The notes beneath the pieces were generated by a model that was not told the DNA's origin, searched no databases, and worked only from the letters and a program-made list of their open reading frames with translations. 28,196 nt of DNA from the NCBI GenBank assembly GCA_038895675.1, contig JAWANB010000007.1, forward strand, positions 1-28,196, given 5' to 3'. The translations under genes were made by a program, and so were the position numbers. Origin of the DNA: Candidatus Iainarchaeum sp. (GTDB taxonomy: Archaea > Iainarchaeota > Iainarchaeia > Iainarchaeales > Iainarchaeaceae). How positions within the stretch are numbered: position 1 is the stretch's first letter; each line of letters opens with the position of its first letter. Below are positions 106 to 11,734 of the stretch, in pieces.

Positions 106-173
106 TTTCATGCTATTTCAATTAAATAACCGCTGGGATGACAGAGCGGCCATGTACTCGCCTGCAGTAACCC

Positions 174-272
174 TTTTCTTTCCTTTTTACCAAGGAAAGA
201 AAAGCGTTAACGGAAAAGAAAGGTGGTGTTTTTTTCTTTCCTTTTTACCAAGGAAAGAAAAGCGTTAACGGA
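174..272 (+). repeat. Two identical 41-bp hairpin units (type A) inside the tRNA intron
   Basis: TTTTCTTTCCTTTTTACCAAGGAAAGAAAAGCGTTAACGGA at 174-214 and 232-272. Stem (C)TTTTCTTTCCTT/AAGGAAAGAAAA(G), loop TTTACC. Confidence 0.95.
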
Positions 273-276
273 TAAC

Positions 277-404
277 CCTTTTTTGCTGGTCGCAAAAAAG
301 CGTTAACGGAAATGGTATTAGTCCTTTTTTGCTGGTCGCAAAAAAGCGTTAACGGAAATGGTATTAGTCCTTTTTTGCTGGTCGCAAAAAAGCGTTAACG
401 GAAA
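277..404 (+). repeat. 46-bp tandem repeat (2.8 copies) of hairpin unit type B inside the tRNA intron
   Basis: CCTTTTTTGCTGGTCGCAAAAAAGCGTTAACGGAAATGGTATTAGT at 277-322 and 323-368, partial at 369-404. Stem CTTTTTTGC/GCAAAAAAG, loop TGGTC. Confidence 0.95.
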
Positions 405-504
405 AAATTCAATAAATAATTTGCGGCAAGCGAGCAAGGAGGGTTCGACTCCCTCTCCCAGCTTATTTTATATTTATAAAAATACATTATAATGAGTAGC
501 TAAT

Positions 505-1213: not shown

Positions 1214-3865
1214 TTATAATTTTTTGTTGTTCGTGAATTTTTGTATTTCCATTATAGCAAACCCAACTAAAGAAATACCAAGTATTGTTGCCCAATCAAT
1301 TAGGCTTATTGAAGTAGTGTTGAATATTTTTTGCATTGGCTCAAAATAAATTATTAATATTTGCAATAATATTGAAGAAGCTATTCCTAACACGAGCATT
1401 CTGTTTTGCAAAATATTATTGAGGCTTTTCAGAGGCTCTGAACTTCTGCTCCCTATTGCTGCAAACATTTGTAATACTACTAATGTTGTGAACGCCATTG
1501 TTTGAGCTTTTGTAATCCCCTGATTCAAGTAAGCGTAAAATAGTATAAAACTAAAGAAACCCATTATTAAGCCAAAAGTAATTATCATTCTCAAGTTTTC
1601 TTTATTCAATGGTTCTTCTTCGGCCTTTATTGGAGGCTTTTCAAGCATGTTTTGCTTTGTTTTTTCAAAACTTAATCCTATTGCAGGCAAGCCATCAGTA
1701 AGTAAGTTCATTGTTAGTATTTGTAGTGGTGTTAGTGGAAATGGCAAGTTTGCAAGCATTGTTGATACTACTATAACAACTTCTCCTAAATTGCATGACA
1801 ACAGATATTTTGTTGAGTTAATTATTTTTTCATAAACATTTTTTCCTTCATTTATTCCTATTATTATTGTTGTAAAATTATCATCCGCTATTGTTGCGCT
1901 TGAAACTTCTTTAGCTACATCTGTTCCAGTTATTCCCATTGATATTCCTAAATCAGCATTTTTTAGTGCAGGAGCATCATTTACTCCATCGCCTGTCATG
2001 GCCACTATTTTTCCTTGTTTTTTTAGAGCCTTTATTATTCTAAGTTTTTGAATAGGTAGTGTTCTCGCTATTATGCTTGTATCTTTTATTATTCTTTCTA
2101 ATTCTTCATCGCTCATTGCTTCTATTTCTTCGCCTGTGATTACTTTGTCCCCTTCTTCATACAAACCTATTTTTTCAGCTATTGCCTTTGCAGTTTCTTT
2201 ATGATCGCCTGTTATCATTATTACTTTTATTCCTGATTTTTTTGCCTGTTCTATTGCTTCTTTTACTTTTTCTCTTGGTGGATCTATCATCCCAACCAAA
2301 CCTAAAAATGTGAGGTTTGATTCGACTTTTTCTACTTCTTGAAAGTCTTCTTTGATTTCTTTGTACGCAAAACCTATTACTCTTAACGCCTCTTTCCCGA
2401 ATTTCAAGTTTGTTTCCAAAATTTGTTGTTTATCCTTTTTTGTTAGTTTGATTTCTTTGTTTTCCTTTACTATTTTTATGCTTTCTCTTAAAACAATGTC
2501 AGGTGCACCTTTTACTAAAACTAATTTCTTTCCATTTTCTTCTATTATAACGCTCATCATTTTTCTTTCTGAGTCAAAAGGAAACTCTTTTACTTTTTTT
2601 GTTTTTTGTTTTTCTTTTTCAACGTCAAAACCGAACTTTTCTGCGAGAACAAGTAATGATGCTTCCGTCGGGTCTCCTATGACTATTGTTTTTTGTTGAT
2701 TTCTAATTATTTTTGCGTCATTGCAAAGTACTGCTGTTTTTGCAATAATTTGTAATGCTTTGTCATTTTCTGGTTTAGGTGTTATTTTTCCTTCTTTCGT
2801 GTAACCCGAGCCAGTTATTTCATATTCTTTTTGTGTTGTGTAAACTTTTGTTACAGTCATTTCATTTTTTGTTAGAGTACCTGTTTTGTCGGTACAAATA
2901 ACATTTATCTGTCCTAAAGTTTGTATGGCGTCTAGTTTTCTTATTATCATTTTCTTTTTTGTGAGTTCTTGAGCGCCTAAAGCCAAGCTTATTGTTACTA
3001 TTGCTGGTAGAGAATTAGGCACTGCTGCAACAGCCAAACTGAGTGAAAAAATAAGTAATTGTGTTGTTTCTAAATTGCCTTTTAGTGTTCCTAATAGAAA
3101 TATTGCGATTATTATTAAGATTACTATCGCTCCTATTGTTTTTGAAAGTTTTTCAAACTTTTGTTCAAGCAAAGTTTTTGTTCTTTCTGTTTTTGATAAT
3201 GATGCTGCTATTTTTCCAAATTCTGTGTTATTCCCTGTCGCTATTACTATTGCTTTTCCTTTCCCGTAGGTTACTATTGTTCCCATGTACGCCATGTTTT
3301 CTCTATCCGCAACTTCACAATTCTCTTTTAGCGGTTCTACAATTTTTTTTGAGGGTATTGATTCTCCAGTAAGACTTGATTCATCTATTTGTAAGTTTGT
3401 TTCTTCGAATATTCTCGAATCAGCAGGAACAATGTCTCCAGATTCTAAAGCTATTATATCTCCCGGTACTAAGTATTTTACGGGAATAATTTTAGTTTCT
3501 CCATCTCTTATTACTTTTGCTTTTGGCGCTGTTAGTTTTTGGAGTTTTTCCATTGCCTTTTCTGCTCTGTATTCTTGGAAAAAGCCAAGTATTGCTGAAA
3601 TAAATATAACGAATATTATTGCAAGCGTTTCTAATATTTCGTGTAGAATTGCCGATACTATGGCTGCTATGAAAAGTAATATTATTAAGACGTTTTTGAA
3701 TTGGTCTAAAAGTATTTCAGTCCATTCTCTTTTTTTTTGTTTTTGGAATTCGTTATAACCATGTTCTTGAAGTTTTTGTTTTGCTTTTTCTTCAGTTAAA
3801 CCATTTTCGCTGGTTTCAAAAAACTCCATTACTTTTTTGTAATCTTGCGCGTGAAAGTTTTGCAT
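1214..3865 (-). CDS. P2-type cation-transporting P-type ATPase (Ca2+-ATPase-like) with an atypical M4 motif
   Basis: TGES, DKTGTLT phosphorylation site, KGAP, MITGD, GDGVND, M5 SCNLGE and M6 NLLTDGLP are present. M4 reads AAVPNSLP instead of PEGLP. Confidence 0.93.
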   Translation of the reverse strand: MQNFHAQDYKKVMEFFETSENGLTEEKAKQKLQEHGYNEFQKQKKREWTEILLDQFKNVLIILLFIAAIVSAILHEILETLAIIFVIFISAILGFFQEYRAEKAMEKLQKLTAPKAKVIRDGETKIIPVKYLVPGDIIALESGDIVPADSRIFEETNLQIDESSLTGESIPSKKIVEPLKENCEVADRENMAYMGTIVTYGKGKAIVIATGNNTEFGKIAASLSKTERTKTLLEQKFEKLSKTIGAIVILIIIAIFLLGTLKGNLETTQLLIFSLSLAVAAVPNSLPAIVTISLALGAQELTKKKMIIRKLDAIQTLGQINVICTDKTGTLTKNEMTVTKVYTTQKEYEITGSGYTKEGKITPKPENDKALQIIAKTAVLCNDAKIIRNQQKTIVIGDPTEASLLVLAEKFGFDVEKEKQKTKKVKEFPFDSERKMMSVIIEENGKKLVLVKGAPDIVLRESIKIVKENKEIKLTKKDKQQILETNLKFGKEALRVIGFAYKEIKEDFQEVEKVESNLTFLGLVGMIDPPREKVKEAIEQAKKSGIKVIMITGDHKETAKAIAEKIGLYEEGDKVITGEEIEAMSDEELERIIKDTSIIARTLPIQKLRIIKALKKQGKIVAMTGDGVNDAPALKNADLGISMGITGTDVAKEVSSATIADDNFTTIIIGINEGKNVYEKIINSTKYLLSCNLGEVVIVVSTMLANLPFPLTPLQILTMNLLTDGLPAIGLSFEKTKQNMLEKPPIKAEEEPLNKENLRMIITFGLIMGFFSFILFYAYLNQGITKAQTMAFTTLVVLQMFAAIGSRSSEPLKSLNNILQNRMLVLGIASSILLQILIIYFEPMQKIFNTTSISLIDWATILGISLVGFAIMEIQKFTNNKKL

Positions 3866-3893: not shown

Positions 3894-3937
3894 TTTAAAA
3901 GTCTATTTGGTATGGGTCTGGGAGTTTGTAGTCGTCT
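3894..3937. repeat. 44-bp direct repeat, copy 1 (duplicate of the pyrH 3' end)
   Basis: TTTAAAAGTCTATTTGGTATGGGTCTGGGAGTTTGTAGTCGTCT, identical to 6912-6955. Confidence 0.97.
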
Positions 3938-4058
3938 CGTGGTTTTTTTTTGTTTTTTTTCACAGGACAATTTTTTCATAAGGTAATGAATTTCTATATA
4001 ATACCTCTAAAAAATAAGTTAATAAAGTATTCTCTTGTATTCTTTTGTATGTGATTAG

Positions 4059-4385
4059 ATGGTTAAAAAATTAGCTAACATTAAAATTGTTTTCACTCTA
4101 CTAATTAAAGAGTCTATTTTAGATAATCTTCAAAAAATTTTGGAATTATTCAAATTCGATAAAAAATATATGGGTAGATATACCGTAGAGAGTCATTTAA
4201 ACGATTTATGCGTGGGTGTTTTTATTATATTGCTTAAGATTAACTTAACTCTATTAATGGGTGTAAAAAAATTGAAAGAAATAACAAAAATGGTAATCAC
4301 TTATAGTGTTCTACTAAAAAAAAGAAAAGAAAAAATATTTTCATTAGTTAAGAAATCAACAATCATTAGCTATTTCGCCAGATGA
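4059..4385 (+). CDS. Hypothetical protein or degraded gene remnant upstream of the helicase
   Basis: 108-aa ATG ORF ending 4 nt before the helicase start. No recognisable motif, and the C-terminal half looks like an off-frame read. Confidence 0.3.
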   Translation: MVKKLANIKIVFTLLIKESILDNLQKILELFKFDKKYMGRYTVESHLNDLCVGVFIILLKINLTLLMGVKKLKEITKMVITYSVLLKKRKEKIFSLVKKSTIISYFAR

Positions 4386-4389
4386 TAAC

Positions 4390-6909
4390 ATGAATTTATC
4401 CAAAGAAAAATTAGAAATATTAAAAGATACTTTTCATAATATAAAAATTGTTGCTGGCCCTGGCTCAGGAAAGACAACATTATTAATAGAAAAAATAAAA
4501 TTGTTAGTTCAAGAAGGAGTTCATCCTGAAAGAATACTATTAGTTACTTATACTAATAAATCTTCTAAAGACTTGTTTTACAAACTCAGCCAGAACATTC
4601 CAAATAAAAGAAATTTTTATATTGGTACCATCCATAAATTTTGCACTATTTTTATGCGACAGAATCCACAGTTTTTTTTAAAGTATAAAGATTTTGAAGT
4701 TTTAGATGAATATCGTCAATTTTTATTTTTTAAAAAATTTATTCGTAAAATAAAACCCCTTGGTTCTCGTTTAGAAATTTCAGAATTGCGGGATTATTTT
4801 GGCAGAATAAAAGACAATTATTTTTTTGAAGAAATAGAAAAAACTTATTTCGATTTAAAAGATTATTATTTGAATTATTGTAAAATTTTGGAAAAGAAAA
4901 AAAAGTTTGATTTTGGAGATTTAATCCACGTTGTGATAAAAGAAATAAAGTCAAATAAAGATCTTCAAACAATTGCAAAAAACAAATTTGATTATATATT
5001 TGTAGATGAATATCAAGATATAAATAGAGTTCAAGAGGCATTGTTGAAACTATTCCTAAGAGAAAGCAACAAGATTTGGGTAGTTGGAGATAAAAATCAA
5101 AGCATTTATGGTTTCAGAGGAAGCAATTTAAAACTTTTTGACGATTTTGAAAAAAATTTTCCAAACGTAAAAACTTACACTATAAAGAAAAATTACAGAT
5201 CAACGCAAAAAATAATAGATTTTTCGAATTTCTTTATGGATTTGAAAGAACCTGTTTTAGGTAATTTAGATTCCAGTGATGGCAGTATTACTCCGAAAGG
5301 AAGTAAAGTTCTAATAAAAGATTTTGATTGTGAAAAAGCCGAACTTAAATGGTTTGTTGAATATATTAAAAAGCTAAAAAAAGAAAAAATTATACAAAAT
5401 TATTCTGATATCGGGGTTCTTTTTAAAAGTATAAAACACCAAGCCAAAACTCATATAAAGTCATTAGAGGAAGAGAATATTCCAGTAGAAGTTTTAGGCT
5501 ATAGTGATCTCTCAAATTTAAACTATATCAAAGAAATATTATGTGTTTTTAAAGAATTTAATAATAATTCACGAATTTCAAATAAATTTCTAGAACTTGA
5601 AGTGTCTAAAGGATTTAATTCGAAAAGACCATTAGATTTGCTTTACGAAATTCTTTCAAATTCAAACTGGTTCAAAAATAAAATCAAGAATAATGACGAT
5701 AATGTTTTATTCAACATAGCGAGCCTTTCTAAAATATTAGAAATTTATCAATCGACATTTAATACAAACTTAGACGAATTTTACAAATATTTTAAAAATG
5801 AATTTATTGATTATTTTGATACTGAAAGACCAAAAAATACAAATTCGGTAAAAGTTTTGACGTTTCATAAGTCAAAAGGTTTAGAATTTCCAATAGTAAT
5901 AATTCCCAGAGTTGACAAAAATTTTTTTGCTAAAAAAGAAAAAGATTTTCTTCACTCTCTATTCCCTGATTATGATTCAACTGCTGATTTTAAAAGAGCA
6001 AAATATGTTGCAATAACTCGCGCAAGAGATTTATTAGTTTTTTCATCTGTTAGAGGCCCACCTATTGAATTAATAAAAAATCGAACTTTAGTCTACGTTA
6101 GTAGTAATATCGCAAACAACATTTTAATGCAAACTGAGGAAATTCCAAAAGTCAGATCAGTTAAGGAAAAAGAAGAGATTATAACTTTAAATCATTATAA
6201 ATTAGAAGAATTTTTGAAATGTCCTTTTTCTTATAAATTAAGATTTTATAACAAGTTTTCTGTTCTTTCTAATTATGCATTAATTTATGGTGCTAAATTG
6301 CATGGTGCAGTATATCGTTTAAATTTATTAATAAACAAAGAAAATATAAACAAGGATTTAGAGGACTTAATTAAACAATCAAAATATGAATCTCAATTAA
6401 AAGAGAAATTAGAGCGGTATCTTATTGATTTTAATGAGGAAACAAAAGATGCTCTTCTTTTTCCAGAAAAAACATTTTATTCAATCGTGGATGGGGTGAT
6501 TATTAAGGGTAAAATAGATTTATTAATACAAAAATCTGATGATGTCAAAATTATTTGTGAATTTAAATCGGGTAGCTATAACAAAATTTTTGAAGAAAAA
6601 GCAAAGAGACAATTAGAATTATACTTTTTGGCACTTAACGATTCAAAAATAAAAAAAGGCATTATTTATTTTTTCGGAAATCCTAGTAAGAAAATAGTTT
6701 TTGACTTTAGTCCTCAAACTAATTTAAAACTCATGGAAATTCTGAATAAAATTAAGTTAAAAAATTTTGAACCAGATACAAAAAATTGTAACTTGTTAAA
6801 TAAATGTGTTTTTGCTAAAATTTGCCCTCATTATAATAAAGACGCAATTAATGGTATTAATGAATATTATGAAGATGATAATACTGATTTAGAGCTCGAT
6901 GATTATTAA
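4390..6909 (+). CDS. UvrD/PcrA-family SF1A helicase fused to a C-terminal PD-(D/E)XK nuclease with a predicted Fe-S cluster
   Basis: Helicase motifs AGPGSGKT, VDEYQD, VGDKNQSIYGFRG, NYRS, TFHKSKGLEF and YVAITRAR. Nuclease motifs GKIDLL, EFKSG and QLELY. Cys pattern KCP...C-x5-C-x5-C resembles AddB/Cas4. Confidence 0.92.
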   Translation: MNLSKEKLEILKDTFHNIKIVAGPGSGKTTLLIEKIKLLVQEGVHPERILLVTYTNKSSKDLFYKLSQNIPNKRNFYIGTIHKFCTIFMRQNPQFFLKYKDFEVLDEYRQFLFFKKFIRKIKPLGSRLEISELRDYFGRIKDNYFFEEIEKTYFDLKDYYLNYCKILEKKKKFDFGDLIHVVIKEIKSNKDLQTIAKNKFDYIFVDEYQDINRVQEALLKLFLRESNKIWVVGDKNQSIYGFRGSNLKLFDDFEKNFPNVKTYTIKKNYRSTQKIIDFSNFFMDLKEPVLGNLDSSDGSITPKGSKVLIKDFDCEKAELKWFVEYIKKLKKEKIIQNYSDIGVLFKSIKHQAKTHIKSLEEENIPVEVLGYSDLSNLNYIKEILCVFKEFNNNSRISNKFLELEVSKGFNSKRPLDLLYEILSNSNWFKNKIKNNDDNVLFNIASLSKILEIYQSTFNTNLDEFYKYFKNEFIDYFDTERPKNTNSVKVLTFHKSKGLEFPIVIIPRVDKNFFAKKEKDFLHSLFPDYDSTADFKRAKYVAITRARDLLVFSSVRGPPIELIKNRTLVYVSSNIANNILMQTEEIPKVRSVKEKEEIITLNHYKLEEFLKCPFSYKLRFYNKFSVLSNYALIYGAKLHGAVYRLNLLINKENINKDLEDLIKQSKYESQLKEKLERYLIDFNEETKDALLFPEKTFYSIVDGVIIKGKIDLLIQKSDDVKIICEFKSGSYNKIFEEKAKRQLELYFLALNDSKIKKGIIYFFGNPSKKIVFDFSPQTNLKLMEILNKIKLKNFEPDTKNCNLLNKCVFAKICPHYNKDAINGINEYYEDDNTDLELDDY

Positions 6910-6911
6910 AC

Positions 6912-6955
6912 TTTAAAAGTCTATTTGGTATGGGTCTGGGAGTTTGTAGTCGTCT
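6912..6955. repeat. 44-bp direct repeat, copy 2 (last 13 codons and stop of pyrH)
   Basis: Identical to 3894-3937. Encodes DDYKLPDPYQIDF* on the minus strand. Confidence 0.97.
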
Positions 6956-7779
6956 TTTCGTTTTGTTTGTTTTGTTTTTGTTTTTCTTGTTTTTTTCTTT
7001 TTTTCTGTTTCTTTTTGTTCTTCTTCGTATTCAATTGTTTCTTCTGGAATTTCTTTTATTGTTGTTCCAGTAAATTGTTCTCCTCTTACAAAAGCCGCAA
7101 AGTTTGGTAAGTTGTTTCCGTTAAGAACTACTGCTGGTATTTTGCTTCTTTTTAGTATCATGCAACATGGTAGGTCCAGCACAACATTTTGTCCTGGTTT
7201 GGAGCTTTCTTTTGCTATTATTGTAATTAGTTTGTCGTATGAAATTTCTGTTAGCATTTTTGCTTCTGGATTTTCTTTCGGGTTTGAATCAAATATTCCG
7301 TCTACGTTAGTTAGGTTTACAAATGTTCCGTTTAGGTATTCTGCTATTAGTGCTGCTACCGTGTCTGTCGTGAATAGTGGCATTAAACCGCCGAAAACCG
7401 GTATTTTTCCTTCGTCTATTATTTCTTTAGCTTCTCTAACATCATCTAAAACTTTTTTCCATGCGTTTGGCAGTGCTGCTGCCATTAGTGTTGCATTTGC
7501 TTTTGTAATGAGTATTCCTAATAGGTCTTGTTCAAAATTGTTTAATCCAAGTGATTTTGCTGAATCAAGGTATAGTCTTGCCGACTTTCCGCCTCCTACT
7601 ACTATTACAAACTTTTTGCCCGAGTAATGTAGTTGTGAAATTACTTCTGCGATTGCTTTTATTTTTTCTGCGTCTGGCATGTCGTTTGTGAAAAGTAGGC
7701 TTCCGCCTATTGAAACAACATAAATGTCGTTTGTGGTAGTATTTGTCATTATTGTGTTGTTTTCAAAAATATCGAACAT
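6913..7779 (-). CDS. pyrH: Archaeal-type UMP kinase with a charged C-terminal extension
   Basis: SIGGS, VVGGGKSAR.Y, D.LGI..T..NA, TTD.VAALIAE, TNVDGIF..NP and GT motifs. Alternative start at 7749. Confidence 0.92.
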   Translation of the reverse strand: MFDIFENNTIMTNTTTNDIYVVSIGGSLLFTNDMPDAEKIKAIAEVISQLHYSGKKFVIVVGGGKSARLYLDSAKSLGLNNFEQDLLGILITKANATLMAAALPNAWKKVLDDVREAKEIIDEGKIPVFGGLMPLFTTDTVAALIAEYLNGTFVNLTNVDGIFDSNPKENPEAKMLTEISYDKLITIIAKESSKPGQNVVLDLPCCMILKRSKIPAVVLNGNNLPNFAAFVRGEQFTGTTIKEIPEETIEYEEEQKETEKKKKTRKTKTKQTKRKDDYKLPDPYQIDF

Positions 7780-11281: not shown

Positions 11282-11734
11282 TTAGGTTTTCGCTACTTTA
11301 GATGCTATGTGGCCTATAAAGATAAAAGTCAGTAATAATGTGCTGTCTATTCCAAAGTCTATTATAGAGTATAACATGTTAGGGTGGGAGTTTGTTAAGT
11401 AGTAAAAAAGGTTGTGTAATATTACTGCCAATATTATTGTTGGAATAATGTTGTTTAGCTTAAATTTTTTTATTTTGTAGCCATACGCAATAGCTATTAT
11501 GCCAATTATAACGTGGCCTGCGAAATGAAATATTGTGTCTAAAGTTATGGCCCAGTCTGGAAAAAATTTTTTTGAGTGTGGAAGAACTTTTCCAAAGCCG
11601 AATAATGAGTAATAATAAAGACTTTTTAGCCAAATTATTATTTGGATTCCTAAATAGTTTATTGCTAAACTTCTTTTGTCTAATTTGTAAAACAAGGAAA
11701 TAATGTTTTTTATCAAAAAATCACTAATAATCAA
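11282..11734 (-). CDS. Hypothetical membrane protein (about 4 TM segments)
   Basis: 150-aa hydrophobic ORF filling the gap between the HAD gene and acdA. Start codon uncertain. Confidence 0.6.
   Translation of the reverse strand: MIISDFLIKNIISLFYKLDKRSLAINYLGIQIIIWLKSLYYYSLFGFGKVLPHSKKFFPDWAITLDTIFHFAGHVIIGIIAIAYGYKIKKFKLNNIIPTIILAVILHNLFYYLTNSHPNMLYSIIDFGIDSTLLLTFIFIGHIASKVAKT

Follow-up and report, generated by a model that had tools for sequence, protein, structure and literature searches.

Analysis of a 28,196-nt window, the whole of contig C7 in an 839-kb Candidatus Iainarchaeum genome (G000, 92% complete), revealed a small islet at the 3' end of pyrH, the archaeal UMP kinase gene. The islet carries one long gene, for an 839-aa UvrD/AddA-like helicase with a C-terminal nuclease domain, lies between two exact 44-bp copies of the pyrH end and contains no gene for its own mobility. 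It is real and polymorphic: some members of the population have it and others lack it. Empty sites, low GC content and a patchy distribution bear out the integrase-less islet proposed earlier by a sequence-only reading of the same DNA, and mark it as foreign-looking and polymorphic. It works like a class of insertions with long target duplication, without being a restriction-modification member of that class. As to its origin, we place about half of our confidence in a recombinase-free insertion that duplicated its target, followed by loss and regain through RadA recombination.

The two repeat copies are identical at 44 of 44 nt. The exact match extends in neither direction, the edges are abrupt, and the 44-mer occurs nowhere else in the 839-kb genome; the chance of such identity, estimated from base composition, is about 10^-25.6 per site. 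Read on the minus strand, the repeat consists of 1 nt of a Lys codon, 13 codons (DDYKLPDPYQIDF), the TAA stop and 1 further nt. The helicase stop codon (6907-6909) is separated from the right copy by 2 nt, and deletion of 3,018 nt (one repeat and the interior) leaves 29 nt from the pyrH stop to the ATG of a P-type ATPase gene. The repeat, the part of pyrH that it covers and these two distances are as the sequence-only reading gave them. The islet interior has a GC content of 24.9%, compared with 31.9% in the left flank and 35.1% in pyrH. The assignment of pyrH is supported by its TIGR02076 score (207.5 bits versus a cut-off of 158 bits). In the window (6913-7000) and elsewhere in the family, the PyrH tail is rich in Lys and Arg and ends in a conserved motif, P-D/N-P-Y-x-I-D-F/Y, which is mostly missing from other families of the order and is possibly a binding motif.

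Both alleles were found in hot-spring metagenomes, the source of the sequencing runs that contain the contig sequence. We compared four of the five runs (X1, X2, X3 and X5, leaving X4 aside), among the contig pieces listed: X1 is the possible source run, X2 and X3 are other samples of the same study, and X5 belongs to a second study. The empty site is represented by single contigs in X2 (record 11) and X3 (record 19), which run from pyrH through one copy of the 44-nt core to the ATPase gene. Their 55 unmatched letters and 7 differences are exactly those predicted for the host pyrH tail followed by one core. X2 also contains a 342-nt piece of the islet (0 differences, 2.3x), and X5 contains three 151-nt pieces (0-1 differences). 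In X1 the islet forms one 3,034-nt contig at 15.8x coverage, the flanks are at 24.4x, and contigs break inside the core; we do not take the resulting depth ratio of 0.65 as a cell fraction, since AT bias could contribute to it. Loose contig ends in X2 and X3 map to window positions 4109, 4266, 5883 and 6582-6617, two of which (4109 and 5883) are common to both runs; a related element could account for them, as could matches arising by chance at 88% likeness.

The breaks in the core and the lower depth in X1 are compatible with an assembly artefact, or with a free 3-kb circle misthreaded into the chromosome through the 44-mer. Moreover, the run contigs derive from a 31-mer graph, which does not distinguish an integrated copy from a circle, and the 44-nt core hides a circle junction. 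Nevertheless, we find this explanation scarcely credible. Contig C7 is free of any N, and scaffold-gap overlaps of 127-131 nt in the genome suggest that the assembler used words longer than 44. Database records of the helicase and ATPase proteins come from 93,780-nt contigs, and those of a split helicase, an ATPase variant and pyrH from 163,219-nt contigs (in each case equal length suggests one and the same contig). The split of the recorded helicase falls at a run of five A, which suggests a long-read indel. Finally, islet pieces occur in the second study as well. On these grounds we rejected the assembly join that had been named as one possible refutation of the sequence-only reading.

Comparison with relatives indicates that the helicase gene was gained. 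A pyrH match was present in 36 of 41 genomes, and among the 35 others than the host we examined 20 regions, whose downstream reach was 1.6-17.8 kb. In the closest congener (G001), pyrH lies 117 nt from the ATPase gene with no helicase between them, and UvrD-family matches are missing from all four congeners. Taken together, the pyrH-ATPase adjacency in G001 and the lack of a UvrD-family gene in the congeners argue for gain in the host. Of 215 genomes surveyed in the phylum, three contain a member of the helicase clade, the host included (a fourth match is a distant PcrA-like gene), and no relative has the helicase near pyrH. A gene shared by all relatives at this position, which would also have spoken against an islet, was thus not what we observed. 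The pyrH-ATPase junction had been called a natural gene pair; this holds for the host species and G001 but not for 19 of the 20 relatives, in which pyrH converges on a diphthamide-synthesis-like gene (a label tested on one representative), either directly or past one or two small ORFs. In most relatives a small, basic and highly variable ORF (73-187 aa) lies between these two genes.

Neither the 20 relatives nor four metagenome pyrH loci (one of which duplicates genome G015) contain a downstream repeat of the pyrH tail longer than 15 nt or repeat-flanked cargo at pyrH. The alternative cargo anticipated for this site was therefore not found, and we rejected pyrH as a recurrent insertion hotspot in these regions. 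By sequence comparison, then, the helicase gene was gained recently, and the genomes searched do not share a hotspot at pyrH.

We also looked for signs of a dedicated recombination system. Tyrosine-integrase sites have an overlap of 6-8 nt flanked by inverted core-binding arms, casposons have terminal inverted repeats, and integron cassettes carry a palindromic attC hairpin. The best core-type inverted repeat at the islet matches at 4-5 of 9 positions, a level reached by 86-100% of 500 shuffles, though degenerate sites could be missed by this test. There are no arm-type repeats in the islet and no terminal inverted repeats between its ends (best 9 of 14), and folding is no better than that of shuffles for any of four strands (z from -0.4 to +0.7). 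We accordingly rejected a DNA transposon (no terminal inverted repeats), a casposon (neither terminal inverted repeats nor Cas1, PF01867) and an integron cassette (no attC-like hairpin above shuffles). One expectation for an att site does hold, in that attL/attR-like direct repeats at the pyrH 3' end keep the gene whole. However, with no recombinase-type inverted repeats, hairpin, second cargo, or viral or phage copy of the core, the suggested protein-gene att site was not substantiated.

The islet contains no integrase relic, and searches of the genome yielded neither a tyrosine or serine recombinase nor Cas1; both G000 and G001 lack PF01867 and PF00589 matches, whereas 191 of the 215 phylum genomes encode a tyrosine recombinase. 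The absence from the host genome counts for little, because a block with xerA, a PRC-barrel gene and an NAD-synthase gene is missing as a unit in G000, by the start of contig C16, and six relatives carry xerA immediately past the genes that occupy this contig start in G000. The host xerA region looks unassembled, and for this reason a recombinase acting on the islet in trans is possible. The shared lack of PF00589 in G000 and G001 would suggest that xerA was lost in the host lineage, a reading that we do not adopt because its neighbours are absent as well. Searches for the core or pyrH in viral sequences, along the lines recommended by the sequence-only reading, returned nothing from IMG/VR (by protein, exact 21-mer or degenerate tail pattern) or from GenBank phages. 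Likewise, no parent integrative element was found in the relatives, the metagenome loci or the viral scans. RadA is encoded in the genome.

The cargo protein matches the UvrD N- and C-terminal families (PF00580 and PF13361) and the PD-(D/E)xK family PF12705 above their cut-offs. Walker A, Walker B and the later helicase motifs are intact, and nuclease motifs lie near residues 707-745. Four cysteines (611, 800, 806 and 812) are present and may bind an iron-sulfur cluster. A structural model (mean pLDDT 65) resembles Rep, UvrD, AddA, RecB and AdnAB. Judging by fold and motifs, the protein is most likely an ATP-driven enzyme that unwinds and degrades DNA from free ends. Its order of domains, a superfamily-1 motor followed by a PD-(D/E)xK nuclease, is that of AddA, AdnA-AdnB and RecB; unlike them, it scores far below the respective cut-offs, has no partner subunit in the islet and is patchily distributed as an AT-rich gene in DPANN archaea. 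AddAB/AdnAB was rejected on the AddA profile score (127 bits versus a cut-off of 708 bits) and the lack of a partner subunit in the islet. In Gabija, the OLD-family nuclease GajA is encoded beside a UvrD gene. We rejected this system too, since GajB profiles match just the generic helicase part of the islet protein and the neighbouring islet ORF has no PADLOC match. No methyltransferase or restriction family appears among the matches shown for islet proteins, and a restriction-modification member was rejected accordingly. At 25.1% GC, the helicase ORF is one of 6 among 481 long ORFs with GC of 26% or less.

Eight database relatives of the helicase are 42-50% identical to it. In a 19-row tree it groups with its close relatives in a clade of 12 members that has full support and is nested in a wide family of ~900-aa fusions; database sources label some of the relatives Micrarchaeota, Pacearchaeota or Woesearchaeota. 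One scan of genome and viral contigs for relatives was empty, and other scans, with the best 80 matches kept, gave distant UvrD-type proteins only (at most 32% identity in genomes, short or partial in viruses). No plasmid match was found at 1e-30. Two relatives, in G055 and G166, have a readable context, and both sit at sites other than pyrH. In G055 the gene comes after a small HNH gene, within a block located 3' of a predicted tRNA, and no empty site for it was found in 60 genomes. In G166 a pair of small genes with flanking repeats comes after the helicase gene, which has a contig end on its other side. Specifically, in G166 (L058, 2457-3307) small genes with direct repeats of 38 and 18 nt come right after the helicase, and the L058 ORF has no Pfam match; in G055 (contig C5, 10100-12700) small genes with degenerate tRNA-end-like repeats lie downstream of tRNA-Tyr. 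We take the repeat-flanked small genes in both genomes to be toxin-antitoxin-like. Patchiness, composition and neighbours suggest that the cargo may have an accessory role in repair or in defence against incoming DNA. Among the papers listed by open-access searches, none dealt with such islets or with this helicase clade in DPANN.

Among described systems, the islet is closest to insertions with long target duplication. In the part of PMC2853133 (Furuta, Abe and Kobayashi 2010) used here, these are inserts below 20 kb with duplications longer than 30 bp (44-49 bp in its Table 2) and no mobility gene, and the repeats often span a start or stop site. The islet shares the small insert, the near-perfect repeat above 30 bp, the lack of a mobility gene, the empty site in close kin, the repeat across a stop codon, the low GC content and a nuclease cargo. 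It differs in its UvrD/PD-(D/E)xK helicase-nuclease, its archaeal host and its pyrH target. Three of four class features are present (the 44-nt repeat, the 3,018-nt insert and the empty site) and restriction-modification content is lacking. The same part of that source reports that no archaeal case survived selection, and it also lists lone mcrA and orphan methylases.

The sequence-only reading had offered a recombinational cassette as an alternative to an att site, and this alternative fits best. In the scheme that we favour, horizontal transfer would have brought in an AT-rich single-gene islet, whose one-time insertion at the 3' end of pyrH needed no dedicated recombinase. A single crossover, or the repair of a break, would have duplicated 44 bp of the target, and pyrH would stay intact because the duplication spans its stop codon. 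The identical copies would let host RadA delete the islet, strain exchange through the flanks would restore it, and the two processes together would produce a mixed population. We infer the direction of change within the species, as well as the insertion chemistry and the role of RadA.

A number of observations weigh against this scheme. According to the sections of PMC6563490 considered here, a length of 44 bp is usual for crenarchaeal att sites too (29-69 bp, median 45), and protein-gene 3' ends serve as targets for 14 of 68 thaumarchaeal elements. The right-hand limit of the pyrH reading frame also fits, since the repeat reaches only 1 nt beyond the stop codon, as it would for a gene-restoring element. 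The insertion class was defined on restriction-modification genes, at least in the portion of PMC2853133 drawn on above, and the present cargo is different. That 44 bp suffices for RadA recombination in this lineage is assumed. Synonymous codon usage of the helicase gene is not atypical (rank ~142 of 481), and no repeat of at least 15 nt closely brackets the G055 relative. A further difficulty comes from the left edge of the islet, where the repeat copy runs on in frame, after a TGA, as the Lys-rich KNCPVKKNKKKPR. This extension fits the pyrH tail of G001 better than that of the host (24 versus 10), which pure target duplication does not predict; the G001 fit is reached by 0.5% of A-matched 39-mers, G001 having been chosen post hoc from 16 tails.

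The extension had been described as a pyrH-like continuation of the left copy. It is indeed real and in frame, but its sequence resembles the pyrH tail only weakly above chance. A profile of 16 pyrH family tails matches 1.2% of 145,840 non-coding 39-mers as well, and 3.9% of 16,726 A-matched ones equal the extension. At the DNA level, 3.5% of 3,000 sampled 30-mers and 7.7% of 2,000 T-matched 30-mers align equally well with the host pyrH tail. The empty allele has the host pyrH tail in place of the extension, which represents microhomology where the insert was joined or else what is left of the pyrH tail of a relative.

The most substantial competitor, which we tentatively regard as possible, is a decayed integrative element: a virus or plasmid with an integrase would have inserted site-specifically at the pyrH 3' end, restoring the gene, and later been reduced by deletion to a single cargo gene flanked by attL and attR, and an integrase in trans may still excise it. 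Such a history resembles that of a CIME as defined in the part of PMC5704250 examined, with which the islet shares att-like repeats at a gene 3' end and the absence of integration and transfer genes; it differs in that no parent element or tandem partner was found and the repeats lack recombinase-site features. The islet also resembles thaumarchaeal elements, which, going by the same sections of PMC6563490, can be as small as 2.6 kb: an archaeal host, a protein-gene 3' end, a preserved reading frame and empty sites in kin are common to both. On the other hand, those sections give most repeats as shorter than 26 bp, do not have pyrH among the listed targets, name the integrase as the most conserved protein of cryptic elements and state that casposons use a Cas1 homologue; the islet has a longer repeat than most and neither integrase nor Cas1. 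Among the papers listed by open-access literature searches, none pointed to pyrH as an integration target, although target tables in the supplements of the cited papers could list it. Repeat length and position, fully identical copies with abrupt edges and an extension that could be an attP relic are all consistent with a decayed element. So are the location of the G055 relative in an HNH block 3' of a predicted tRNA, which implies that such genes travel in multigene units, the prevalence of tyrosine recombinases in the phylum, and a host xerA that may be unassembled. The failure to find core-type or arm-type repeats, an integrase relic in islet or genome, another pyrH-targeted element in the relatives and metagenome loci, or any viral or phage counterpart argues in the opposite direction.

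Two other histories appear unlikely. The helicase-nuclease might promote its own mobility by resecting ends and so favouring its insertion with long duplications, as a minimal one-gene element. By fold and motifs the cargo is an end-processing enzyme, the consulted part of PMC2853133 suggests that double-strand breakage underlies this type of insertion, and several of the 12 close relatives are on contigs of about the size of the islet (3,654 nt for each member of a cluster of three, and 3,028 and 3,259 nt for two others). However, short contigs are usual in those collections, and G055, the sole relative with both flanks readable, is not bracketed by repeats. No circle junction was seen either, although contigs from a 31-mer graph would not reveal one. 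If true, this would be a self-promoted one-gene DPANN element with target-variable duplication, cycling between integrated and excised states without integrase or transposase, and it would extend to end-resection enzymes and to archaea the virus-like life cycle hypothesized for restriction genes (PMC2853133, same part). Somewhat more doubtful still is a tandem duplication with reciprocal loss, in which the helicase gene initially lay on the upstream side of pyrH, both genes were copied together, and one helicase copy and most of one pyrH copy then disappeared. This would explain the pyrH-like extension, and contig C16 of the same genome does have a ~290-nt gene-end duplication around housekeeping genes. 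Yet it requires two additional events, the helicase is not near pyrH in any relative, and a decaying remnant is unlikely to be perfect for 44 nt and then sharply broken.

Features of the islet and its flanks are collected in Table 1. The 108-codon ORF is probably not a gene, its sole database match being its own 71-aa gene call. Against the 215 genomes, the islet leader gave just short, mostly low-complexity matches and one pyrH tail, none of them credible. A sigma-70 promoter scan, a type of scan unsuited to archaea, stayed at chance level.

Table 1. Features of the pyrH islet and its neighbours in the window
Feature	Position	Strand	Basis or remark
P-type cation ATPase; directly after pyrH in empty allele and congener G001	1214..3865	-	
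Left (ATPase-side) 44-bp copy, orphan last 13 pyrH codons and stop	3894..3937	-	Exact match, two genome copies
A-rich in-frame extension KNCPVKKNKKKPR within islet edge	3938..3975	-	Weak excess over chance
Islet leader, 452 nt	3938..4389	.	Without terminal inverted or arm-type repeats
108-codon ORF without relatives	4059..4385	+	No Pfam or PADLOC match
839-aa UvrD/AddA-like helicase with C-terminal PD-(D/E)xK nuclease	4390..6909	+	PF00580, PF13361, PF12705
Right 44-bp copy, functional pyrH 3' end	6912..6955	-	Exact repeat
pyrH, archaeal UMP kinase, Lys-rich C-terminal tail, target left intact	6913..7779	-	TIGR02076

Several other loci in the genome are worth recording. Near the start of the window (168-414) there are 46-58-nt tandem repeats. 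Contig C2 (16080-17815) holds a remnant type V-A CRISPR locus: in a 65-codon ORF, residues 23-48 match the N-terminal end of Cas12a (TIGR04330, E 3e-8, well short of the cut-off), and the ORF leads into a partial repeat, then a stretch the size of one spacer and a further repeat, which we take to be similar to Cas12a repeats. Another identical copy of the 33-nt repeat is found at a distance of 1.7 kb, and a DUF6036 nucleotidyltransferase-like gene separates the two. On contig C1, a 41-nt exact piece of a neighbouring gene for a 316-aa protein (36813-36853 and 37814-37854) lies inside an open frame without an obvious N-terminus, the C-terminal part of which is Cas4-like (PF01930 above cut-off); this is a template-switch scar or a mis-assembly. 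The C16 duplication mentioned above (4797-5085 and 11441-11730) covers the 3' end of a gene for a 787-aa protein and the DNA that follows it, in two near-identical copies. These enclose 6.6 kb with housekeeping genes and two tRNA-Lys genes, and the arrangement looks like a duplication-loss scar.

The structure of the islet is well supported. Its architecture is familiar, the pattern having already been described in bacteria, so that the kind of islet is known and the archaeal member is new. As an archaeal case it is clean: natural populations contain both filled and empty alleles, the target duplication is long, and a mobility gene is lacking. The pyrH site of this streamlined DPANN genome lends itself to a simple assay that tells RadA-dependent from recombinase-dependent excision, and its cargo is a candidate for an enzyme that acts alone in defence or repair.

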